Assembly (NCBI GenBank): GCA_964476585.1
Contig: CAYZBF010000005.1
Span: 15,882 to 79,881 of the forward strand
DNA: 64,000 nucleotides
Origin: an uncultured bacterium
GTDB lineage: Bacteria > Hydrothermota > UBA3072
Reading direction: 5' to 3'
Numbering within the stretch: position 1 is the stretch's first letter; every line of letters begins with the position of its first letter. The notes below the pieces were generated by a model. It had not been told where the DNA came from. It did no database searches and worked only from the letters and a program-made list of their open reading frames with translations. Below are positions 13,456 through 45,078 of this stretch, piece by piece. The position numbers were made by a program, and so were the translations under genes.

Positions 13456-15675
13456 ATGCTAATTCTGCTCTTTCTAATTTCTTTTCCCTATGGAGAAGTA
13501 ATCGTTGATATTGAAACAAAAGGGATAAAAGAGGTTGATACTGCTCTTGTGGTTCACTCCTCTGGTTTAAGAATTGGGGAAATTTTGACCCTTAATAAGG
13601 GAATAAAGGCAATAAAGGACCTTTATGCAACAGGTTTATTTAGAGACATTGAATTGGATGCGCAGCGAGAAGGTGCTGGTATTAAAGTCGTAATCGAGGT
13701 TGAGGAAAATTCCCGATTGAAATCCATCGATTTTAAAGGGAATGCAAAAATAAGTGATGCAGACCTCTCTTCACTAGTGGATTTATCCCCTCCTGCGCTC
13801 CTTTCGAATTATAAATTATTTAATATAAAGGAAAAAATTCTCACGCTGTATAAAGAAAAGGGGTTCTCAGGCACAGAGGTTTCTATCTCGCAAGAAGAAC
13901 AGGAGGATGGTGTGAAGGTTTTATATAACATTGATGAGGGGGAGAAATATAAAGTAAAAAAGATCATTTTTGACAATAATAAAGGTCTATCCGATCATGA
14001 ACTTTCCAAAGTTTTATCTAACAAAACAAAACCATGGTGGATGATTTGGAGAAACAACGACTTAAAGATTGATTCGTTGAAAACCGATGCCTATAAGGTA
14101 GAAGCTCTTTATAGGAAGAAAGGATATCTTGATGCTACCGTGGATACCTTTTTTGTTACGTATGAAGGTAATAAAGCTATTATTGATTATGCAGTGTCTG
14201 AAGGAAGACTTTACTATTTTGGTAACACCTATTTTGATGGAACTGATGATCTAGATTTTGCTTCAACAACCATAAAATGGAATAGAGGGGATAGGTATGA
14301 AGAGGAGAAAATCCAGAAAACTATGGAGACACTCTATAATCATTATACGGATAATGGATTTCTTTATGCAGCAGTACTTCCCGAGTATTCTGTTGTTAAG
14401 GATTCACTTATTGAGATCACATTCCATACAGATAGGGGTTCGCCTGTTTATATCAAGTATATCAATATAATCGGCAATAACAAGACGTACGATAAGGTTG
14501 TCCGACGTAACCTTACTATCTATCCGGGGGAGTTATTCCGACGGAAGGAACTTATAGATAGTCAGCGGAATGTTTACAGACTTGGGTACTTTGAGGATCT
14601 TGGGTTGAATATAGAGAATACAGGTAATATGGATTCAGTAAACCTCATATTTGAGATAAAAGAGAAACAGACCGGTCAATTTACTGCAGGCATCGGGTTC
14701 TCTCAAAGTATAGGGTTAACAGGTAATGTTGGAGCAACTATTCCGAATATTTTTGGAACAGGCCAATCGGTCAGCCTCTCATTTGAAAGAACTATAAGTG
14801 GCGGCACAAAGAGTAATACTATTCAAAATGTGAGTCTGGGATATAGACAACCCTGGTTATTCGATACTCCTACATCGGTGGGTTTTGATCTTTATAAACT
14901 GTATACCAGATGGGGTTACTTTGGGCAAGACAAAGGAGGGGGGTCTTTTTCCCTTGGTAGACTTCTTACAGCAAAAAGAAATTTTCAAGGAACGCTAATC
15001 TACAAATTGGAGAGGACAGAACTGAAAATTCTGGATGAGGGTGCATCTGCGTATATAAAAGCTCAGGAGGGAATAAAATGGGAAAGCTCTATCGGCGGCA
15101 AAATGATCTATGATTCGCGTGATTCTTATATAGCAGCCAGTGTTGGAAATTATTATTCTGTATATACCAAATTTGCCGGGGGACCCCTTGGGGGTACTTT
15201 AAATTACTGGAAGAATATATTAGAAGCAAGAAAATTTCATACCCTTTATGGTAGCATTGTTCTTATGAACAGGGTCCGGATTGGTTACGGGTATTCACCA
15301 GGCGGGGAAGTCCCGCTTACAGAGAGATTTTTTATGGGAGGGATAGGTTTGTGGGGCCTAAGAGGTTATGATGATAGGGATATTGGTCCTTTTTCAGGGA
15401 ATTATGCTATAGGGGGTAGTTTTGCCTTCTTAAACAATCTTGAACTCCGCTATAATTTTTCAAAGACAAGCTATGGTATGATATTCCTTGATGCTGGGAA
15501 CTGCTTTAAAGATATTCAGGCGGCAAGATTATCCGACTTGTTCTATGGTTTTGGCGTTGGGTTTAGAATGGAAGTGCCAATGATGGGAGTCTTTGGGATT
15601 GATTTGGGATATGGCCTTGATGAGAAGAAGGGGGGAGAATGGAAACCGCATTTCCAGATAGGTATGTCCTACTGA
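13456..15675 (+). CDS. bamA: Outer membrane protein assembly factor BamA (Omp85 family)
   Basis: 739 aa; repeated POTRA-like units followed by a C-terminal beta-barrel with alternating aromatic residues ending ...PHFQIGMSY; -35 CCCTTGAC upstream. Confidence 0.85.
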   Translation: MLILLFLISFPYGEVIVDIETKGIKEVDTALVVHSSGLRIGEILTLNKGIKAIKDLYATGLFRDIELDAQREGAGIKVVIEVEENSRLKSIDFKGNAKISDADLSSLVDLSPPALLSNYKLFNIKEKILTLYKEKGFSGTEVSISQEEQEDGVKVLYNIDEGEKYKVKKIIFDNNKGLSDHELSKVLSNKTKPWWMIWRNNDLKIDSLKTDAYKVEALYRKKGYLDATVDTFFVTYEGNKAIIDYAVSEGRLYYFGNTYFDGTDDLDFASTTIKWNRGDRYEEEKIQKTMETLYNHYTDNGFLYAAVLPEYSVVKDSLIEITFHTDRGSPVYIKYINIIGNNKTYDKVVRRNLTIYPGELFRRKELIDSQRNVYRLGYFEDLGLNIENTGNMDSVNLIFEIKEKQTGQFTAGIGFSQSIGLTGNVGATIPNIFGTGQSVSLSFERTISGGTKSNTIQNVSLGYRQPWLFDTPTSVGFDLYKLYTRWGYFGQDKGGGSFSLGRLLTAKRNFQGTLIYKLERTELKILDEGASAYIKAQEGIKWESSIGGKMIYDSRDSYIAASVGNYYSVYTKFAGGPLGGTLNYWKNILEARKFHTLYGSIVLMNRVRIGYGYSPGGEVPLTERFFMGGIGLWGLRGYDDRDIGPFSGNYAIGGSFAFLNNLELRYNFSKTSYGMIFLDAGNCFKDIQAARLSDLFYGFGVGFRMEVPMMGVFGIDLGYGLDEKKGGEWKPHFQIGMSY

Positions 15676-16613
15676 TAATTTCAATCCTTATAATCTCAGG
15701 GTGCGGTTCCCAAAAGGAATATGGGATTAATCCAATTCCCGTTTCTACAGAGATTGTTGAGATTGATTCTTTCTACACGACTACTTTATATGTTCCAACC
15801 GGTGGTGGTGATAGTTTGTTCTCTGGGATAAAGAGCAATTTTGATTCATACGCTCTCCTTAAATTTGATTCTATTCCAGTGAGTTTTGATAGTGTTTCTA
15901 TTAAGCTAAAATCAGATTCAACTCAGCTTGGATTGTGTTTCCATCAAATTACTGATGAATGGTATGAAGATTCCTTGTATGAGTGGGAAGATATAGGGAT
16001 GCTCATAAATACATCCACTGTGCTTCAGACTTCTTTGGTAAATACTAAAAACCCAGAGATTAAATTGAATGGCCAATCTTTAAATGTGATTAATGAATAT
16101 GGAATAGCAATCCATTCCGATTCTTTCTATTCCTTTGCTTCACGAGAAGAGAATGAGCCAAAACTGATTATCTATCAGGGAGATTCAACATATAATTTGC
16201 ACTGTTTGGGAGATCTCTATATAGTGAAGAATCCTTATAATAATCTTCTCAAAGACTCACTATTAATAGGAAGGGGCATATCTATAAAACCGCACCTATT
16301 TATACCCGTTGATTCATTACCCCCTGATAGAGATAATCTTGCAAGAGTTGGACTTCTCTTTAAACTTGAGGAGCCTCCCGCGTTCGATATAATAGCATAT
16401 GATACTTCTGGCAATGAATATTCATCTGAGTGTTATACTGTGGGAGATACAAGTTTCATTGAATTCGATTTACGGACACTTCTCAAGTCAGATTTTTCGG
16501 AATGTTATATCCATGTAACACTGGGCGCTAAGAACGAGTTGGAGGGTATTGATGTTTTAAAATTTTTCCAAAGTGAACTCCGACTTATGTGGGCAGAGAT
16601 AGGTAAGAAATGA
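15639..16613 (+). CDS. Hypothetical lipoprotein
   Basis: Signal peptide + lipobox LIISGC; 324 aa; embedded in the bamA-skp operon; no known domain. Confidence 0.5.
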   Translation: METAFPDRYVLLIISILIISGCGSQKEYGINPIPVSTEIVEIDSFYTTTLYVPTGGGDSLFSGIKSNFDSYALLKFDSIPVSFDSVSIKLKSDSTQLGLCFHQITDEWYEDSLYEWEDIGMLINTSTVLQTSLVNTKNPEIKLNGQSLNVINEYGIAIHSDSFYSFASREENEPKLIIYQGDSTYNLHCLGDLYIVKNPYNNLLKDSLLIGRGISIKPHLFIPVDSLPPDRDNLARVGLLFKLEEPPAFDIIAYDTSGNEYSSECYTVGDTSFIEFDLRTLLKSDFSECYIHVTLGAKNELEGIDVLKFFQSELRLMWAEIGKK

Positions 16614-17557
16614 ATTATATGTTCTTTCTATTTTTAATTATATCTAATCCTCTATATGCTGAGAATATTCCAGGAGAATGGATTGGTGAGAGCGCACTTC
16701 AAGAATCACCGGTATCAAATGGCAACGTCTTTGCAAATCCTGCGACTGCAGATTCATTGAATTCTATCTCTGTTAGTGCGCGTTTTTCCTCCGATGACTA
16801 TAATAAATTTGATGCAAAGCTTTCTTCTGTTATAGTAACATTTCCAGTCATATATGATTTCTTGATAGGTGGGAGGATTAATCTATTGTATAATTCACAA
16901 CTTGAAGGAAAGTTTCCTTGTTCTAATGAGTGGGGTTCTTATGTTGAATATTTCGAGCGGCGAGGTGGTCTTGACCAGTATAGTCTCTTTTTGAAAAAAA
17001 CATTCGGAGAGTTTTCTCTAGGGTTTGACTTGAATCTTCAAAACGGAGAACTTGAAGATAGATGGAAGATCGACTTTGCGGAATATAGTGATATTTTTGA
17101 TACACTCTCTACGTATTTCAGGGGTTATTCGGCAGGCGTTGGCTTGCTTTATTACTGGAAAGGATTTAAAGTGGGTGGATATTACAGTTTTTATCAGAAT
17201 TTAGAATTCTGGAGAGATGGAGAGGATAGGGAAGTGTTCAATCTTGAAAAACCTGTTCGTTTTGGTATTTCCTATTCCCTTGACAGAGGAAAGAGTGTAA
17301 TGTTATCTGCTGATCGGAAGTTAGCTTTACTTACAGGTAGATATGGTCCTCTCATGATAGGATATGGAAGGATTTATGGTTCAGGCTATAACCTTAATAT
17401 CGATGGTAATCGATTCATAGTGGGAATGTTTCTATCCCTTAATAGAGTTCCTTTCACGATAGCAATAGAGAATAGAAGGTATTCTGGAGAATTGCGTGAC
17501 AACGAATATATCGGAACAATAACGATAAGTATTTCTGGTTCAGAAGGAGGTAAATAA
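16610..17557 (+). CDS. Hypothetical outer-membrane beta-barrel-like protein
   Basis: Cleavable signal peptide (..NPLYA|EN); C-terminal two-thirds has alternating hydrophobic/aromatic beta-strand patterns (YYSFYQN, FGISYSL, FIVGMFLSL); 4-nt and 1-nt overlaps with its neighbours. Confidence 0.5.
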   Translation: MNYMFFLFLIISNPLYAENIPGEWIGESALQESPVSNGNVFANPATADSLNSISVSARFSSDDYNKFDAKLSSVIVTFPVIYDFLIGGRINLLYNSQLEGKFPCSNEWGSYVEYFERRGGLDQYSLFLKKTFGEFSLGFDLNLQNGELEDRWKIDFAEYSDIFDTLSTYFRGYSAGVGLLYYWKGFKVGGYYSFYQNLEFWRDGEDREVFNLEKPVRFGISYSLDRGKSVMLSADRKLALLTGRYGPLMIGYGRIYGSGYNLNIDGNRFIVGMFLSLNRVPFTIAIENRRYSGELRDNEYIGTITISISGSEGGK

Positions 17558-18489
17558 TGAAGAAGTATTTGATACTTCTAATTCTTCCCGCCTTATCTCT
17601 TTTTTCGCAGAACAAGATTGGATATATTGATTCTCAGAGGATACTCAATGAATACAAAGGGGCAACTGAGATAAAAAAGAGATATGAACAGAAGGTGTCA
17701 GAATGGAAACAAAGGGGTGAAAAACTAAAAAAGGAGATAGAGAATCTACAGCAAGCTCTCCAGACCCAGGGTATGATGCTCTCAGAAGATGCGAAGTTGA
17801 GGAAAGTGCAGGAGATTGAGAAAAAGCAAAGTGAATATCAGGAGTTTATTCAAGGTATATGGGGACAGAATGGAGAAGCTGAGGCTTTAAACAAGGAATT
17901 GATGCAACCCCTCCTTCGCGAAATAGACACTTTAGTTACAAAAATTGGTGAAGAGGAAGGTTTTTCAATAATCCTTGATACGTCTTCAGGTGCTCTGGTT
18001 TATGCAGATGAGGAAATGGATATAACGGATAGAATAATCGAGTCTCTGAATAGGAAATTTTTACCTGAGGCTACTGAAAGGATTGAATATCATGTTTTTA
18101 AATTCAAGGAGGAGGATTCCGAGGCAAAATCAAGAAATCTCGGAGAACTGATAAAGAATCTGATTGACGTTGGAATTAAAAACACCGGTGGATTCAAGGA
18201 GATTGAGTCCCAACCAATGAGTAACGCAAGGAGCACTCTGGGGATAGTTAAAGATGAAGATATAGATGTTCAGACCTCCATTCAACTTCTACGGATTACA
18301 GATGGTGATTTTATTGTTATTGGAAGAGTCTGGTTGGAAGGCGGCCTCATATACCTCGAATTCAAATTGGTAGACAAAGAACAACATGACGTGGTAATAA
18401 CTGAAACCGTGGAGATTGGCGTAGAACAGAATTTGAGTTCCAGCATACCTGACAAGGTGGTAGGAAAGATTGTAACTTATTATAAATGA
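17557..18489 (+). CDS. skp: OmpH/Skp-family periplasmic chaperone with an about 140 aa C-terminal extension
   Basis: Signal peptide, then [13 protein letters not shown]...coiled-coil...GFSIILD typical of Skp/OmpH (first about 165 aa); sits between bamA and lpxD as in the canonical synteny. Confidence 0.7.
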
Positions 18490-19490
18490 AGATAAAAGAC
18501 CTCGCTGCTCTAATAAATGGCGATGTCCTCGGGAACGGGGAATATGAAGTAAGAGGTGTTTCTCTGATTGATGACGCAAAAGCTGGAGATCTCGTATTTC
18601 TCTTTGATCCGAAGATAGTTGGGGAAGCCAGGGATAAGCTTATAACTGTTGCTGCTGTTGTCTCTGGAACCCTTAAGAAATGCCCTTGCCAGAGTTGTAT
18701 TAAAGTGAAAGAGCCTAAAGATGCGATGGTTAAAGTGCTTAACCATTTCTATCCAACACCTGTGAAGTCATTTCACGGGAATAGTCAAAATACACATATT
18801 GGAGATGTAGAAATCGGGAAATATGTGACTATTGGAGATTACACGGTTATCAGTGACGGAACCAAAATTGGAGACAAAGTTGATATCTTTCCTTTCACAT
18901 ATATTGGCTATGATGTGAAAGTAGGAGAGGGGAGCAAGATTTATCCCCATTGTGTTATTCTGGACAGAACAATTATCGGACGAAACGTAACTCTCTATCC
19001 TGGAGTGGTAATTGGTTCTGATGGATTTGGCTATCACAAAAAAGAAAAGAGGTTGACTCATATACCACAGGTGGGTAATGTAATAATAGAAGATGAAGTT
19101 GAGATTGGTGCATGCAGTATGATAGATCGTTCTACGATTGGAGCTACCGTTATTGGAAAAGGGACAAAAATCGATAATAGTGTCCATATAGCGCATAATG
19201 TGAAGGTAGGAGCTAATACGATTATTGTTGCTCAAGTTGGTATTGCGGGGAGTTGCACTGTGGGGGATAATGCTGTTATTGCTGGACAGGCAGGAATTGC
19301 CGATCATACAAATATCGGGAATGGTTCCACAGTAGCTGCAAAGTCCGGCGTGATGAGGGACGTAAAGGATGGGGAGGTGGTTTTTGGATATCCTGCTGAC
19401 CGCCGGATTACTGTTATGCGAAATGAGGCATACGTCAGGAGACTTTCAGAACTCTTCAAAAGAGTGAAAGCCCTTGAAGAATCTAAGTGA
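18486..19490 (+). CDS. lpxD: UDP-3-O-acylglucosamine N-acyltransferase
   Basis: N-terminal LpxD domain followed by extended left-handed beta-helix hexapeptide repeats (IGD.V.I....I...V.IG); ATGA overlap with skp. Confidence 0.85.
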
Positions 19491-21448
19491 TATTTTACCT
19501 CTTTATCTTTCTTTTTTCTAATTCTTCTCTTTCTTCTGAAATTGTAGAGTATAGAGGCACTAAAATTGTCTTCAAGATAGATTCAGCCCTCGTATGTATC
19601 TACGGTGAAGCAGAAGCCGAGTACGGGGAACTCCATGTATGGGCGGAAACTCTACATTTTTATCTTGAGGATAAATTCTTAGATGCTAGAGGAGAGGTAC
19701 GCTTTACTGATGGTAATAATATCATTCTGGCTAAAAGGATGACCTATGATGTGAAAAAGGAAATTGGAATAGCATACGAGGCGAAAACAGAGGTGGAAAG
19801 GGGGAGATTTTATGGAAAAGAAATACGTTACCTTGAAGGAAAAGTATTAAAGATAAGTAACGGTTATTATACTACATGCGAATTAGATCCTCCACATTAC
19901 TGGTTCTATTCGCCTCATATGAGGGTAAATATTGATGAGGATCTCGTAGCAGAACCTGTTGTTCTTCTGGTTAGAAAGATTCCTCTTTTTTTTATTCCTT
20001 TTTGGTTCCAACCTTTAAAGAAGGAACGTTCTTCCGGGATTATCACTCCTTTATTTGGCTCTTCATCTTACGGGGGAAAATATATAGAGGATATCGGGTG
20101 GTATCAGACTCTTGGCCCTTATGCTGATGCTATTATTTCGATGGATTACTATACAAGAAGGGGGATAAAAACTCATATAAATGCAAGATGGAAGCTATTT
20201 CCCTATGGAGAAGGAAACCTCTCTGGCAGTTATATTAAAGAACGAGAAGGTGGTGGAGAACGCTGGACACTAAAAATTAATAATCAAACCAGGCTGCCTG
20301 AAGGTATCAATTTGAATATATATTCAAACATCGCTTCTGATAATAAATACTTTTCAGATTATGAAACAGGTGAGGTTGAAAAACTAATCAGAGATCTTTC
20401 CTATGGAGGGAATATAGCAGGAAAAATTAAAGGTTTCGGGATATATGGTATGGTAGACTATCGAGAGAATGTAAGTACTGGGGTATTGAGAGAAAAATGG
20501 CCATCGATTAATATTACCTTTCCCAGGATAAAAGTTGGGATGGTAAATCTTAAGGGTTCATCAAAATACATAAGGGATGAGACTGAACACTGGGGAACGG
20601 GTATACAGGGAAATGCGAACATGGGATTTAATCTCGCAGTATTCAATGTAAATGGTAACTTTTTAGCAAGAGATGATTATTACGAAAGAGAAGATATTTC
20701 CATCAGACACTGGAATTCAAGTGTTGCGATCAAAACAAGATTATACGGACTCTCAATCTTTGGTATCGGTTCCATCGCAAGATTTAGACACGTAATTACA
20801 CCTTCTGTTTCTTTTGGATATGCCCCAGAACCGGATAGTTTTGAGGTTATTCCTCTCCCTGGATTTTCACGCCCTATGGGTCGAAAATCGCTTGGAGTGA
20901 GTTTAAGTAATCTCTTTCAGTGTAAAATCGGAGAAAACAAATATGATTTTGCTTCCCTCTCTTTTAATACGAGTTATCAGCCCAAGAAAGACAGATTCTC
21001 ATCTGTTTCCCTGTCTGGTAACTTCTGGATTGGTGAGTATTTTCGTCAAACATATTCTACTTCTTATGATTTATATACTAAAGAGTTTGGAGAGAAGACA
21101 GTCACAACTGATTTTGGATATGGGACCCATTTTGGAGACGAGCCACTTGATATATCAATGACACACCGGATAAGATTCACTCAGGATAGAAGGATTCAAC
21201 AGGCAGATTTTGGTATAAAGTTCTACGTTACTCCCAAATGGAAGGTTAATATATTCACTCATTATGATTTTGAAAAAAATACAGTGACAAGCAGTAGAAT
21301 AGGATTTACACGAGATTTACATTGCTGGGAATTGAGTATGTCATACAATACCTTTGGTGATAATTGGGATTACAATATCAATCTGCAATTAAAGAAACTT
21401 CCGGAAGTTAAGTTAGAGAGAGGAACCATACGAACACTTCTTCCCTAG
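19487..21448 (+). CDS. Putative LPS-assembly protein LptD (OstA-like N-terminal domain + large beta-barrel)
   Basis: GTG start overlapping the lpxD stop; N-terminal OstA/LptA-like beta-jellyroll segment ([46 protein letters not shown]); 653 aa, beta-rich. Confidence 0.5.
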
Positions 21449-24877: not shown

Positions 24878-25061
24878 TTCTCATTGATAAATAGTATTTA
24901 TATTATGTCAAGACAGAAAAATGTTATCTTTGTTTATTATCACTATACACAAATATAAATATATTTATTAAATCTACATTTATCCATGGTTAGAAGTGAT
25001 TGGGTATTGTATATTTTACATTTTAAATTTTTCATTCTTCATTTTGCATTATACTATCCCC

Positions 25062-25090
25062 TTGACATAATCTCGTTCCGATTTTAATAT
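25062..25090 (+). promoter_or_regulatory. ffs promoter (TTGACA-17-TAATAT)
   Basis: CCCCTTGACA at 25062-25067 and TAATAT at 25085-25090, about 7 nt before the SRP RNA 5' end. Confidence 0.6.
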
Positions 25091-25096
25091 AAGATT

Positions 25097-25369
25097 GCCA
25101 GTCGTACTAAGCGGGGAGTTAGCGGTGCCCTATACCTGTAATCCGCTATAGCAGGGCCGAATGCTTGCACAAGCTTATCGTTTTTTATTATGGGCTTCAG
25201 GAGAAGGTGATGAAATTTGGGTCCTTCATAGGAGTGTACCTTAAACCCCGTCAGATCCGGAAGGCAGCAGCGGTAAGAGGATTTCATTCCTGATGGAGGG
25301 TTGCCTAAATGGAGCTTTTCTTCGGTCGTACCGATAAGGGAAGATTTGCAAAGCAAGCTGTACGACTGG
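25097..25369 (+). ncRNA. ffs: Signal recognition particle RNA, long form with Alu domain (Bacillus scRNA-like)
   Basis: 5' GCCAGUCGUACUAAGCGGGGAGUUAGCGGUGCCCUAUACCUGUAAUCCGCUAUAGCAGGGCCGAAU nearly matches the B. subtilis scRNA 5' Alu domain. Domain IV CCCCGUCAGAUCCGGAAGGCAGCAGCGGUAAG. Termini GCCAGUCGUAC / GUACGACUGGU pair. Sits directly upstream of dnaX-ybaB-recR as in Firmicutes. Confidence 0.9.
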
Positions 25370-25380
25370 TAGAAATTATT

Positions 25381-26886
25381 ATGGGATATTTGGTGTTAAC
25401 GCGGAAATACAGACCACAGGATTTTGATGAGGTGGTGGGTCAGAAGCATGTAACCCAGACCTTAATGTCTGCCCTGAAGAACGGAAGAGTAGGACATTCT
25501 TATCTATTTGCGGGACCAAGAGGGGTAGGAAAGACATCTGTTGCGCGTATCCTGGCCAAGGCTCTGAATTGCGAAAAGGGTGTGGTGGAGAATCCCTGTA
25601 ATGAGTGTGAAACCTGCAAAGCTATCACAAAGGGAAGTGCAGTAGATGTTATAGAAATTGATGGAGCTTCTAACAGGGGCATTGATGAAATAAGAGGTCT
25701 AAGAGAGGCAATTGCATATAATCCTTCTTCTGCAAGGTATAAGGTCTATATAATTGACGAGGTTCATATGCTTACGAAGGAGGCATTCAATGCTCTCCTT
25801 AAGACCCTGGAGGAACCTCCCTCTCATGTAGTTTTTATCTTGGCAACTACTGAACCGCAGAAGGTTCCCAAAACTGTTCTCTCCCGTTGTCAGAGATTTG
25901 ATTTCAGAATGCTTACCGAAAAAGAGATTTTCACCAAGTTAAATTTATTGGCTAAATTGGAGTCTATAGATGTTGATGAAGAATCACTAAGGTTGATCGC
26001 GACCAGAGCAGAAGGCTCTATTAGGGATGCTGAAGGAATGCTTGATCAGTTAACATCATATTCAGAAGGGCGAATAACAACTAACGATGTAAAAGAGGTG
26101 TTTGGATTTGTTGGTGATAAAGTTTATATGAAATTATTTGAGGGAATATCAGCCAGGGGTGAAAAAGCTATCATCGAAGGAGTTGAGAATGTCGTTCAGA
26201 AGGGTTATGACATTAGAGAATTTGTCTACGGCTGGTTGCATTTTTTACAGAGACTGTTGCTCTATAACCTTGATGTTCCATATCCCACCTCAGTGGAAAT
26301 CGATGAAGATTTAAAAAAACTTGCAAAGAGCGTATCTACTGAGTTCTTAACAGCCGTGTTTAGCCTTTCCACAGATATGGAAAAAGATATAAGAGCGGTT
26401 CCCTATTCGCAGGGGTTTCTTGAACTATCAATGCTCAGGATGGCAAGAATACCCGATCTTGCCGATATCAATACGTTAATTAAAGAAATATCTGAACCTC
26501 GCATTGTTGAAGATGAACCTTATAAGGAGCAAGAGGGAAAGCCACAAAGAGTCAACAAAGAAGCTCAAAAAGATGTGACGGAATTATGGGGAAAGATAAT
26601 AGAAACCATTAATAACACTGATGGTAATAACTTCTTCAAAAGTTTTTTAAGAGAAGCAGCGCCCGTTTCGTTTACCAGTAATTCCTTGAGATTAAATGTC
26701 CCAGAGGCCCACAAAGAGCACCTAAAAGAGGATATACATCTGTTAAAGGAAGCCTGTAGGGAGATTTTAGGATCCGATATAGAGATTAATATAGTTACAT
26801 CTGCTGGGTCATTGGAGGAAACGATCAAACATGATCCAATGGTAAAAAAGATAAAGGAGATATTTAATGCTGAAGAATATGCTTGA
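25381..26886 (+). CDS. dnaX: DNA polymerase III subunit gamma/tau
   Basis: RKYRPQDFDEVVGQ..., P-loop GPRGVGKTS, zinc module CNECETC, DEVHML. Start moved to the MGYLVLTRKYRPQ Met because the ORF-track start overlaps ffs. Confidence 0.9.
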   Translation: MGYLVLTRKYRPQDFDEVVGQKHVTQTLMSALKNGRVGHSYLFAGPRGVGKTSVARILAKALNCEKGVVENPCNECETCKAITKGSAVDVIEIDGASNRGIDEIRGLREAIAYNPSSARYKVYIIDEVHMLTKEAFNALLKTLEEPPSHVVFILATTEPQKVPKTVLSRCQRFDFRMLTEKEIFTKLNLLAKLESIDVDEESLRLIATRAEGSIRDAEGMLDQLTSYSEGRITTNDVKEVFGFVGDKVYMKLFEGISARGEKAIIEGVENVVQKGYDIREFVYGWLHFLQRLLLYNLDVPYPTSVEIDEDLKKLAKSVSTEFLTAVFSLSTDMEKDIRAVPYSQGFLELSMLRMARIPDLADINTLIKEISEPRIVEDEPYKEQEGKPQRVNKEAQKDVTELWGKIIETINNTDGNNFFKSFLREAAPVSFTSNSLRLNVPEAHKEHLKEDIHLLKEACREILGSDIEINIVTSAGSLEETIKHDPMVKKIKEIFNAEEYA

Positions 26887-27181
26887 TTACAAGGGAATTA
26901 AGGATAAAGTTGAACAGATAAAGAAGGACCTCCAGCAGGAGAGGCTCGTTGTAGAGAGCGGTGGAGGGATGGTAAAAGTAGAAGTTGATGGATTTGGTAG
27001 CGTCACAAACTTGGAGATAGAGGACGATCTTTTCAATGAGAAAGATAAGCAGTTAATTGAAGATCTTATCATTGCGGCTATAAATGAAAGTAGGGAAAAA
27101 GTAAAAGCATTGTGGCAGAAAAAGATTGAGTATTATATAGGAAATTTACCTCTAGGGGGATTGGGAGATATAATAGCGTGA
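26867..27181 (+). CDS. ybaB: Nucleoid-associated protein YbaB/EbfC
   Basis: 104 aa; ...VESGGGMVKVEVDGFGSV..LEI...; classic position between dnaX and recR. Confidence 0.9.
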   Translation: MLKNMLDYKGIKDKVEQIKKDLQQERLVVESGGGMVKVEVDGFGSVTNLEIEDDLFNEKDKQLIEDLIIAAINESREKVKALWQKKIEYYIGNLPLGGLGDIIA

Positions 27182-27777
27182 GACCCCCTAAAGTGTTTGT
27201 CCGTTTTGCTGAAGCTCTTCAGTTTCTTCCGGGTATAGGCAAAAAATCCGCTGAGAGAATAGCATTCTACCTTCTTTCAAATCCGGCGGAGGGAAAGAAA
27301 ATCGCTGATTCTGTTGAGCAGGTTCTCACTTCAATTAAATTCTGTAGTGTATGTGGCAATATTACTGTTGAGGATCCGTGTTCGATATGTTCTTCTCCTG
27401 AAAGGGATAAATCTACAATATGTGTGGTTGAAAAACCAATGGATGTCTTTGCAATAGAACGAGCAGGGATTTATGATGGATTATATCATGTGTTGGGTGG
27501 TCTTATTTCACCTCTTGATAATAGAGGTCCTGAAGATATAACGATTGATTCACTAGTACTGCGAGTGAGAAATGATAAGATCAATGAGGTTATTATTGCT
27601 ACGAACCCAACGACAGAGGGTGAAGCCACTGCTATGTATCTCCAGGAAACTCTTAAACCCTTTGATTTAAGTATAAGTAGAATCGCCCAGGGTATTCCTG
27701 TTGGGACTGACCTTGAATTTGCAGATGACGTAACACTCCTAAGGGCACTTGAGGGGAGAAGAGAAGTTAAGGATTAG
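27178..27777 (+). CDS. recR: Recombination protein RecR
   Basis: HhH LPGIGKKSAERIAFYLL, C4 zinc finger CSVCGNITVEDPCSIC, Toprim; 199 aa. Confidence 0.9.
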   Translation: MRPPKVFVRFAEALQFLPGIGKKSAERIAFYLLSNPAEGKKIADSVEQVLTSIKFCSVCGNITVEDPCSICSSPERDKSTICVVEKPMDVFAIERAGIYDGLYHVLGGLISPLDNRGPEDITIDSLVLRVRNDKINEVIIATNPTTEGEATAMYLQETLKPFDLSISRIAQGIPVGTDLEFADDVTLLRALEGRREVKD

Positions 27778-43690: not shown

Positions 43691-44419
43691 ATGATAAAGA
43701 GAAAAGATGCTTTAATACTTAAGAGTTATGATTATAGCAATTCAAGTAAGATAATCCATGTCCTAACCGAGGATTCAGAGAGGATTTCTCTTATAGCAAA
43801 GGGGGCAAGGAGGACGAATAGCCGTTTTGGCGGTAACATTGAACCTTTAAATCTTTCAGAGTTAGTCTATTATATAAAGTGCGACCGAGATATGGGTGTA
43901 CTAAAGGAAGCAACAACGAGGAAGCCTTATCTTGGTGTCAAAAATGACCTATATAGATTGAATATAGCCTGGGCCTTACTCTGGATCGCAAAAAGGATAC
44001 CTGATCCCCAGGATGGTCTATTTGGGTTAGAGGAGAGGTCCCTTACATTTCTAAACAGAGGTTTTAGAGAAGAGACATTGATTTATTTTATGCTCTCTCT
44101 TTTTCGCTTGAGTGGGATTTCACCGAGGATTGATGGGTGCGTAAGATGTAATTCTAAAGAGGTAAAATTCTTTGACGTTTCATTGGGAGGTGCCCTTTGC
44201 GAAAGTTGTAAGTTAGAAACTGCCTATACATTAAATAACTTATTAGGGTCGCTTAATGAGCTAAAAAAGGGAAGACTACGAAAATGGCAGGAGATAAGCG
44301 ATTCTGATAAAAAGAAAATCTTAAGAATAACATTTGAATATGGAATTTATCATCTTGGAGAATGGTTAAAGCGCTTGAGGGATATTTTACCGCCTTTGAT
44401 AATCCCAAATGAGCGATAA
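43691..44419 (+). CDS. recO: DNA repair protein RecO
   Basis: N-terminal OB fold ILKSYDYSNSSKIIHVLTEDSERISLIAKGARR; C4 zinc finger CVRCNS...CESC. Confidence 0.8.
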   Translation: MIKRKDALILKSYDYSNSSKIIHVLTEDSERISLIAKGARRTNSRFGGNIEPLNLSELVYYIKCDRDMGVLKEATTRKPYLGVKNDLYRLNIAWALLWIAKRIPDPQDGLFGLEERSLTFLNRGFREETLIYFMLSLFRLSGISPRIDGCVRCNSKEVKFFDVSLGGALCESCKLETAYTLNNLLGSLNELKKGRLRKWQEISDSDKKKILRITFEYGIYHLGEWLKRLRDILPPLIIPNER

Positions 44420-45078
44420 TTTGACCAATCTCCAAGGATTGTAAGGTATTTACCTCCCTCCTTATATAAATACGGTCTATGGAAATGTCCCATAAGGATT
44501 GCATCTATATTGTCTCTTGAAAACTTTCTTTGGGCGTATTTGATTACACGATCTATATTTAGAGTAGATTTTTCTGAACGCTGACGTGATAATTTTGATA
44601 TCTTTCTGGCTAAATTAATACCCAGATCTGGATGTATATATGAGAATAGGGCTCTTGAAAGTTTATTCTTAAGTATTATTTTCATTAAATCAGGGGAATA
44701 TAATTCGTTACCATGTTCAACTAATATTTTGGTTTCGCCAGTAGAAATTATTTCAGGGTTAAAATGTGGGATTATGCCGATGTCCTTTACAAAATTTCCT
44801 AACCAAAAATCATGGTTACCGGCCCAGTAATGGATCTCAACACCTACACTTGAAGTTCTCTGGAGTTCACAGAATACCCTAAAGAGAGTTTTTGGTATGA
44901 CCGTTTTATATTCGAAGTAAAAATCGAAGATATCTCCCAGAAGGAACAATTTGTATGCTTCTTCCCTTACTAACTCAAGGAATAAGAAGAAATCCGTTAG
45001 ATCCTTATTTTTAGATTTGTGATTGAAATGAGTGTCAGCAATAACAAAAATAATATCTTTATTAAATATGTGAGACAT
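44350..45078 (-). CDS. lpxH: UDP-2,3-diacylglucosamine diphosphatase (LpxH-type metallophosphoesterase)
   Basis: VIADTHF, LLGDIFDFY, WAGNHDFWLG, ILVEHGN, GHFHRP, ILGDW; same motif order and spacing as E. coli LpxH. Confidence 0.75.
   Translation of the reverse strand: MSHIFNKDIIFVIADTHFNHKSKNKDLTDFFLFLELVREEAYKLFLLGDIFDFYFEYKTVIPKTLFRVFCELQRTSSVGVEIHYWAGNHDFWLGNFVKDIGIIPHFNPEIISTGETKILVEHGNELYSPDLMKIILKNKLSRALFSYIHPDLGINLARKISKLSRQRSEKSTLNIDRVIKYAQRKFSRDNIDAILMGHFHRPYLYKEGGKYLTILGDWSNYRSFGIIKGGKISLKRFNHSPR

Follow-up and report, generated by a model that had tools for sequence, protein, structure and literature searches.

Positions 25097–25370 on the forward strand of the window, as we term the whole 64-kb stretch of DNA analyzed here, very probably constitute the ffs gene of an uncultured diderm bacterium, which encodes an SRP RNA of approximately 273 nt with an Alu domain of the type found in the B. 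subtilis scRNA. In itself this is an ordinary addition to a known RNA family, as the same long form is found in several other lineages with an outer membrane, and any annotation based on Rfam would pick up this routine housekeeping RNA. Its significance is as a data point, one among several, indicating that the textbook distribution of the long SRP RNA is too narrow.

Identification and extent of the RNA

A scan with Rfam 15 recovers a single SRP match in the entire window, namely to Bacteria_large_SRP (RF01854) at 25102–25365 on the forward strand, scoring 139.1 bits (gathering score 60; E = 7.9e-22) with an untruncated alignment spanning model positions 1–256. A permissive rescan of positions 24900–25600 returns the same match, beneath which three weaker, overlapping matches from the same clan are suppressed. 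Hence, the small-SRP model (RF00169), whose score on this RNA is known only to lie below 139.1 bits because clan competition masks its exact value, does not score better. An earlier note on this DNA had proposed a long, Bacillus-type SRP RNA as opposed to a 4.5S RNA, and had named the comparison of these two models as a means of refutation; the large model wins, and the proposal is borne out. The gene and its terminal helix are as follows:

25097–25370, + strand: ffs, long Alu-type SRP RNA of about 273 nt (RF01854; Rfam core 25102–25365)
25098–25107, + strand: helix 1, 5′ strand, ten Watson–Crick pairs with 25360–25369, read from the sequence
25360–25369, + strand: helix 1, 3′ strand, partner of 25098–25107

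The terminal helix extends beyond the Rfam model: CCAGTCGTAC (25098–25107) is the exact reverse complement of GTACGACTGG (25360–25369), and an additional G25097·U25370 pair might sit atop it. While both ends of the RNA are inferred from the sequence, the exact 10-bp terminal pairing indicates that the extent of 25097–25369 given previously, with a length of about 273 nt and paired termini, is right to within one base. Helix 1 thus comprises 10–11 bp in the window, as against 9 in B. subtilis.

The lineage to which this gene belongs is poorly sampled. Among 185,579 GTDB species, each represented by one genome, the only close relative is the “uncultured bacterium binchicken_co34_231” (hereinafter L001), with a DnaX identity of 63–70%, while the other GTDB DnaX matches show 37–54% identity and are spread over many phyla. 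The JGI metagenomes contain nothing nearer than 54% DnaX identity, and a look-up of the exact proteins finds them only in a Logan contig from run SRR9707989. The L001 RNA is 73% identical to that of the window, with nine compensatory pair changes between them; its helix 1 has 11 bp, two of the compensatory changes falling there. The DnaX, YbaB and RecR proteins of L001 are 58–70% identical to those of the window.

For structural analysis, the Rfam consensus structure was projected onto ffs, which was then folded with only helix 1 and the Alu helices 3 and 4 fixed. This constrained fold, in which helix 5 is continuous and helix 8 unbranched, has an energy of -90.5 kcal/mol against -94.0 kcal/mol for the unconstrained minimum, the pseudoknot being uncounted; the canonical SRP architecture therefore costs only 3.5 kcal/mol. 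The unconstrained minimum-free-energy fold itself was set aside as evidence, as it misfolds the pseudoknotted 5′ domain. Further, 20 full-length large SRP RNAs encoded upstream of dnaX in GTDB genomes were aligned and evaluated against the projected structure with the pseudoknot added. The fraction of cells paired across these 20 RNAs is:

helix 1: 86%, with covariation in 4 of 7 pairs
helix 2: 75%
helix 3: 87.5%
pseudoknot: 100%
helix 4: 81%
distal helix 5 and the S-domain helices: 89–99%, with many compensatory changes

Over the whole RNA, 71% of the cells are paired as compared with 42–50% for slid partners, and covariation is seen in 60 of the 98 pairs; none of 500 shuffles of these 20 sequences reached the observed values. 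The RF01854 score of the window RNA is nonetheless lower than the 189–250 bits of Firmicutes versions, on account of a middle part of helix 5 that is rich in A/U and G·U pairs and carries several mismatches. Indeed, 17 of the 95 Rfam-projected pairs of the window RNA are non-canonical.

The Alu 5′ domain

The elements of the Alu 5′ domain can be placed as follows:

25109–25161, + strand: Alu 5′ domain, comprising helices 2–4 and the junction platform (83.4 bits with model R1, see below)
25110–25112 with 25156–25158, + strand: helix 2
25113–25116 with 25128–25131, + strand: helix 3
25135–25139 with 25151–25155, + strand: helix 4
A25109·G25159 and A25161·U25359, + strand: junction platform
25121–25125, + strand: pseudoknot, loop L3 strand AGCGG, pairing with CCGCU at 25143–25147
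25143–25147, + strand: pseudoknot, loop L4 strand CCGCU, pairing with AGCGG at 25121–25125
A25140 and A25150, + strand: equivalents of the A-minor adenines, flanking the L4 strand
25131–25133, + strand: linker between helices 3 and 4, UAU (UGU in the form conserved in the family)

The first 65 nt are 74–82% identical, without indels, to those of eight Bacillaceae SRP RNAs, in agreement with the closeness to the B. subtilis Alu domain that had been noted earlier. Adding 25097 throughout converts positions in the B. subtilis Alu crystal structure (PMC4231752) to positions in the window, and 12 of the 15 nucleotides named in that structure are identical. Those kept include the platform residues A12/G62 (A25109/G25159) and A64/U263 (A25161/U25359), the A-minor adenines A43 and A53 (A25140 and A25150) and the five-pair pseudoknot (AGCGG at 25121–25125 with CCGCU at 25143–25147), which in B. 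subtilis consists of five consecutive Watson–Crick pairs between the two loops (PMC4231752). The features that differ are the UGU at 34–36, which is UAU in the window, the minor-saddle tandem G74/A255 and A75/G254, both of which are A·A, and the G77·U252 wobble, which is replaced by a C-G pair.

To examine this domain across the wider family, a covariance model (R1) was built from the Alu 5′ domain alone, which recovers the window with a score of 83.4 bits, along with 37 other loci. In 36 distinct sequences, the 18 pairs of the domain, including the pseudoknot, are paired in 98.9% of cells, whereas controls with slid partners reach 36–49% and none of 500 shuffles attains the observed value. 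Seven of the 18 pairs covary: helices 2, 3 and 4 are 97–100% paired, with covariation in 6 of their 13 pairs, and the pseudoknot is 100% paired, with an outer pair that is A-U in 33 sequences, G-C in two (WOR-3 and Stahlbacteria) and U-A in one (a Clostridiaceae). Accordingly, the 5′ domain does adopt an Alu fold, with support from covariation; failure to do so was the second result named in advance as capable of overturning the assignment. The linker between helices 3 and 4 reads UGUA in 26 of the 38 sequences and UAUA in two, including the window. As eleven others of the 38 also deviate from the conserved UGU that the window RNA lacks, the position varies in the wider family and is not a disqualifier. 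Other long forms vary elsewhere in the domain: the WOR-3 pair (L010 and L011) has the compensated pseudoknot GGCGG/CCGCC in place of the AGCGG/CCGCU of the window, and in L051 an additional hairpin stands between helices 3 and 4.

Helix 5 and the S domain

The remainder of the molecule comprises the long helix 5 and the S domain:

25163–25229, + strand: helix 5, 5′ strand (constrained fold)
25293–25359, + strand: helix 5, 3′ strand (Rfam projection, constrained fold and alignment)
25170–25174, + strand: site equivalent to the minor saddle, CAAGC (CGAGG in B. subtilis)
25230–25292, + strand: helix 8 and S-domain apex, predicted binding site of the Ffh M domain (invariant alignment columns and fold)
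25259–25262, + strand: GGAA tetraloop of helix 8 (Rfam projection and constrained fold)
25252–25256 / 25265–25269, + strand: symmetric loop of helix 8 (Rfam projection and constrained fold)
25243–25247 / 25274–25276, + strand: asymmetric loop of helix 8 (Rfam projection and constrained fold)

In the fold, the S domain has a tetraloop of the GNAR type (GGAA) along with the symmetric and asymmetric loops, and is unbranched, without a helix 6. The invariant columns of the 20-sequence alignment cluster in helix 8 and the S-domain apex. A U25256·C25265 mismatch in helix 8 is unique to the window among the aligned sequences. At the minor-saddle site, where the motif consists of tandem sheared G·A pairs docking onto helix 3, the window has A·A/A·A at 25171–25172 opposite 25349–25350, flanked by the pairs G25173-C25348 and C25174-G25347, and L001 keeps G·A/A·G.

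The middle part of helix 5, A/U- and G·U-rich and diverged from that of B. subtilis, is only 45–49% paired across phyla in the MAFFT alignment; as this alignment is unreliable in the region, nothing is concluded there beyond the comparison with L001. At the distal end, a divergent GTPase-activating site (CUGAUGG versus GUGCCGC in most sequences) was considered and dropped, as it is mostly a compensated helix: the window has CCUUCAU/AUGGAGG where the others have CCUGCG/CGCAGG, and the helix is 99% paired.

Taken together with the Alu domain, this architecture resembles the B. subtilis scRNA in its length of about 270 nt, in its complement of helices 1, 2, 3, 4, 5 and 8 without helix 6, in the identical AGCGG/CCGCU strands and GGAA tetraloop, and in a 5′ domain without indels. 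The S domain of the E. coli-type 4.5S RNA (RF00169) is homologous to that of the window RNA, with helix 8, the GGAA tetraloop and distal helix 5 in common; unlike the window RNA, the 4.5S RNA lacks helices 1–4 and the Alu domain. The archaeal 7S RNA resembles the window type in having a helix 1, an extended pseudoknot in its Alu domain and no protein bound to that domain (PMC4231752). Archaeal SRP RNAs also have a helix 6 and bind SRP19 (PMC2905702), while the fold of the window RNA has no helix 6 branch.

Functional considerations

Elongation arrest has, to our knowledge, been demonstrated only for the B. subtilis and eukaryotic SRPs, and the steps proposed here for the window RNA are by analogy with studied members of the family. 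Helix 8 would bind the M domain of Ffh and the GGAA tetraloop would speed the assembly of Ffh with FtsY, as expected for the family; neither ffh nor ftsY is present in the window. The Ffh-FtsY GTPase pair might then relocate to distal helix 5, where GTP would be hydrolyzed (PMC5454536). The protein-free, tRNA-like Alu domain could reach the elongation-factor site of the ribosome and thereby slow elongation during targeting, and helix 1, the platform and the contact between helices 3 and 5 would keep it closed (PMC4231752).

From the Alu domain, the earlier note had drawn a hint of an HBsu-like binding partner in this lineage. The HU family is nearly universal in bacteria and its presence would therefore not discriminate; a Pfam scan of four short ORFs (93–124 aa) within the window found no match to it. 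The hint has no basis in the sequence, and the underlying inference lacks support given that the bacterial Alu domain folds protein-free: that of B. subtilis folds closed without protein, and a specific role in the SRP could not be established for HBsu/HU (PMC4231752).

A diderm host

The region upstream of ffs contains a cluster (13456–21448) of envelope genes, all on the same strand:

13456–15675, + strand: bamA (TIGR03303, 457.8 bits, cut-off 297)
between bamA and the next gene listed, + strand: two unannotated ORFs
17557–18489, + strand: OmpH/Skp-like ORF (PF03938, 109 bits)
18486–19490, + strand: lpxD (TIGR01853, 320.5 bits, cut-off 242.5)
19487–21448, + strand: lptD (PF19838, LptD_2, 93.1 bits; LptD, 26.2 bits; both above gathering scores)

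Profile matches thus confirm all three of the genes (bamA, lpxD and lptD) that had been reported near the long SRP RNA. An LpxH-like ORF at 44350–45078 falls below its cut-offs. The encoded BamA, Skp-like protein, LpxD and LptD mark the host as a diderm equipped with outer-membrane and LPS machinery, in which respect it differs from B. subtilis.

The juxtaposition of an LPS-encoding gene set with a Bacillus-type SRP RNA could in principle be an artifact, wherein two organisms were joined in a chimeric assembly. The assembly is indeed metagenomic, and the only other record of the exact locus is the 11-kb Logan contig, which stops short of bamA and lpxD. Against this, composition is uniform over the 64 kb (36–39% G+C, with equally uniform skews); only 3.6 kb, occupied by ordinary housekeeping genes, separates the end of lptD from ffs downstream; and the DnaX, YbaB and RecR proteins encoded beside the RNA are not firmicute-like and match those of L001 at the identities given above. 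We therefore regard a chimera as extremely improbable, and treat the long RNA and the envelope genes as belonging to the same diderm.

Linkage to dnaX and distribution of the long form

Downstream of ffs lie three genes:

25381–26886, + strand: dnaX, DNA polymerase III gamma/tau (NF004046, 492.8 bits)
26867–27181, + strand: ybaB (TIGR00103, 60 bits, above cut-off)
27178–27777, + strand: recR (TIGR00615, 246 bits, above cut-off)

The RNA gene also precedes dnaX-ybaB-recR in B. subtilis, albeit that the gap between ffs and dnaX is 11 nt in the window as opposed to about 155 nt in the Bacillaceae loci examined. The context had been described as Firmicutes-style. The gene order holds, but a survey of 80 GTDB dnaX loci scanned with Rfam shows that it is not specific to Firmicutes: a small SRP RNA is found upstream of dnaX at 23 of the 80 loci, 21 of them outside Bacillota. 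These 23 include delta-proteobacteria, Smithella, Nitrospira, Thermodesulfovibrionales, Bdellovibrionales, Verrucomicrobiota, Pirellulales and Planctomycetaceae, and, within Bacillota, the diderm firmicute Mitsuokella and Liquorilactobacillus. The ffs-dnaX linkage is therefore widespread.

In the same survey, a long SRP RNA is present at dnaX at 15 loci of Bacillota, counting the truncated RNA of Selenomonas (L062), which is 171 nt long and lacks helices 3 and 4, and at eight loci outside Bacillota, namely L001, WOR-3 (L010), Stahlbacteria (L011), Ca. Scalindua (L008) and four unclassified MAGs (L009, L025, L033 and L051). These eight score 114–196 bits with RF01854, and the gap between RNA and dnaX is about 15–45 nt where measured (L001, L008 and L010). 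The long form thus accounts for 8 of the 29 GTDB loci outside Bacillota at which an SRP RNA adjoins dnaX; additionally, the Alu 5′ domain occurs at 17 of 80 metagenomic dnaX loci. Long SRP RNA in diderms is, in other words, a minority but recurrent state.

The toga of the Thermotogae is not a classical LPS outer membrane, and the host of the window differs from them in having BamA, LpxD and LptD. The likeness, drawn from published descriptions, is that in both an SRP RNA with an Alu domain occurs in a bacterium that has an outer envelope. Thermotogae are the published Gram-negative exception with a long SRP RNA (PMC4231752; PMC11431127), and literature as recent as 2024 confines the large bacterial SRP RNA to a subset of Firmicutes and a small number of Thermotogae (PMC11431127; similarly PMC4231752). 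No publication describing a wider distribution was found in the literature searched. The view that a long SRP RNA in this diderm would be phylogenetically informative therefore survives in part: the long form does occur in an LPS-encoding host, but it is not exceptional among diderms, given its presence in WOR-3, Stahlbacteria, Ca. Scalindua and several MAGs, and the precedent of the Thermotogae.

Origin of the long form in the window lineage

One could ask whether the host is simply a diderm firmicute, within or sister to Bacillota like Halanaerobiales or Limnochordia, such that the long form would be the expected Bacillota state and say nothing new about Gram-negatives. In line with this, the full RNA is somewhat nearer to those of Bacillota (56–62% identity) than to those of WOR-3 (51%) or Scalindua (55%); RecR leans weakly the same way, as its best matches after L001 (50–55%) come from loci with Clostridia- or Bacillus-like Alu sequences; and helix 2 with its junction, AAGC/GCCG, is identical to that of some Bacillaceae. 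DnaX points the other way, being about 44% identical to Bacillota versions, no higher than to those of many other phyla. In a neighbour-joining tree of DnaX, the Bacillota cluster excludes the window and L001, which together sit on a long, isolated branch, though a tree of this single gene is not robust and weighs little either way. Further, the 185,579 GTDB species include no close relative other than one unclassified MAG, and the diderm firmicutes sampled have reduced SRP RNAs, small in Mitsuokella and 171 nt in Selenomonas. On balance we consider a Bacillota affiliation unlikely, albeit one to be taken seriously.

Considerably less probable is a horizontal origin, in which the long gene was gained from a firmicute and displaced an ancestral 4.5S gene. 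The scatter of long forms over phyla and the 74–82% identity that the Alu 5′ domain shows to sequences from Bacillaceae and Clostridia might be read in this way. However, the Alu core is about equally conserved in all long forms, so that the similarity reflects constraint and not recent transfer, and the middle part of helix 5 is lineage-specific. The gene also occupies a widely conserved site immediately before dnaX, and its close spacing of 11 nt to that gene has a counterpart in L001; the adjoining DnaX is not firmicute-like; and the G+C content of the window is uniform at 36–39%.

A further reading, somewhat more likely wrong than right, is one of retention: the long, protein-free Alu-type SRP RNA would be no peculiarity of Firmicutes plus Thermotogae, but would have been retained, always beside dnaX, in several deep diderm lineages (that of the window, WOR-3/Stahlbacteria, anammox Planctomycetota and other unclassified MAGs). 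Such a pattern would fit a long form already present in the ancestor of Bacteria and common to Archaea, from which loss of helices 1–4 would have produced 4.5S RNAs many times over. Were this true, the 171-nt Selenomonas RNA would represent an intermediate in the loss, and RNA-mediated elongation arrest would be an ancestral bacterial trait. Mapping the long and short forms over the bacterial tree could reveal whether the Alu domain and elongation arrest are ancestral.

Transcription and the dnaX start

The best promoter-like site in the region, a good one of the sigma-70 type, lies immediately upstream of the RNA:

25062–25067, + strand: −35 hexamer TTGACA
25085–25090, + strand: −10 hexamer TAATAT, at a 17-nt spacer from the −35 hexamer (10 of 12 consensus matches)

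Transcription would accordingly begin near G25097, with which helix 1 opens. L001 has a promoter of the same geometry (TTGACT-17-TAATAT), and its dnaX start codon lies 9 nt past the RNA. No terminator-like site was found between the window RNA and dnaX, and, given the 11-nt gap, ffs and dnaX-ybaB-recR probably form one transcription unit, in which the 3′ end of the RNA would be produced by processing. A tRNA gene lies downstream of recR.

The dnaX start deserves comment. From the ATG at 25381, residues 1–3 of the protein align to positions 1–3 of the DnaX profile, leaving only 11 A/U-rich bases between ffs and dnaX. A longer ORF from the ATG at 25309, which corresponds to the 525-aa protein in the Logan assembly, starts inside the RNA and is probably an over-extension. 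As a practical point, gene callers extend dnaX 24 codons into the SRP RNA.

Alu domain variants among the compared loci

Among the dnaX loci fetched from GTDB genomes and metagenomes, one phylum, Planctomycetota, contains both the long and the small SRP RNA, since the long form is found in Ca. Scalindua and the small one at four other loci of the phylum (L056, L057, L074 and L078). In the sampled diderm Firmicutes, i.e., the Negativicutes Selenomonas and Mitsuokella, the SRP RNA is reduced in both: the 171-nt RNA of the former has helices 3 and 4 deleted while retaining helix 1, a remnant of helix 2 and helix 5, and that of the latter is a plain small form. These reduced versions look like an intermediate stage in the loss of the Alu domain.

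Further, in two unrelated loci an additional hairpin, of about 22 nt in L051 and about 18 nt in L095, interrupts the UGU linker that joins Alu helix 3 to helix 4. The differences between their stems (UCUGAG/CUCGGG vs CCCGC/GCGGG) are compensatory. Because this hairpin occupies the place of the acceptor arm of a tRNA, the two RNAs seem to represent a variant bacterial Alu domain that has so far gone undescribed.

SRP RNA features at the compared loci
L008:2713-2977, long SRP RNA of Ca. Scalindua, an anammox planctomycete (a strong match, 189.5 bits; also L092 and L097)
L062:2724-2894, reduced SRP RNA of Selenomonas, 171 nt
L040:1609-1708, small SRP RNA of Mitsuokella
L051:1183-1271, Alu domain with inserted hairpin, GTDB MAG
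L095:2039-2123, Alu domain with inserted hairpin, metagenome contig

Separately, at a Verrucomicrobiota dnaX locus the small SRP RNA is preceded, at a distance of about 400 nt, by a full-length MISL RNA (L046:1635-2385; RF03079, 581 bits).

The SRP RNA of the window and its junction with dnaX

In helix 8 of the window RNA, the short stem beneath the GGAA tetraloop has a U25256·C25265 mismatch at a position where nearly all the other 19 long SRP RNAs form a covarying Watson-Crick pair. The mismatch may reflect either a genuine variant or a sequencing error.

Downstream, an A/U-rich spacer of only 9-11 nt separates the end of helix 1 from the dnaX start, both in the window and in L001, the only known relative of its lineage, such that the tight junction is kept in 2/2 genomes. 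The junction has neither a Shine-Dalgarno-like sequence nor a terminator. A conserved junction of this kind implies that dnaX would be translated from a transcript with the SRP RNA as its leader. Two reading frames overlapping the RNA are spurious, one of them yielding the 525-aa DnaX called in the Logan assembly.

Junction and overlapping frames
Window 25366-25383, ffs-dnaX junction (counterpart L001 2986-3003)
Window 25309-25380, in-frame upstream extension of dnaX, 24 codons from ATG 25309, spurious
Window 25084-25356, antisense ORF, 90 aa, spurious

Other ORFs in the window

15639-16613 and 16610-17557, ORFs that lie between bamA and the Skp-like gene and encode 324 and 315 aa
44350-49905, minus strand, LpxH-like phosphoesterase and TPR proteins

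Neither ORF of the first pair has a match in Pfam or NCBIfam, and the neighboring Skp-like ORF encodes 310 aa, roughly double the length typical of Skp. The LpxH-like protein is a calcineurin-type phosphoesterase scoring below the curated LpxH cut-offs, and its gene adjoins those for TPR proteins of 330 and 1185 aa.
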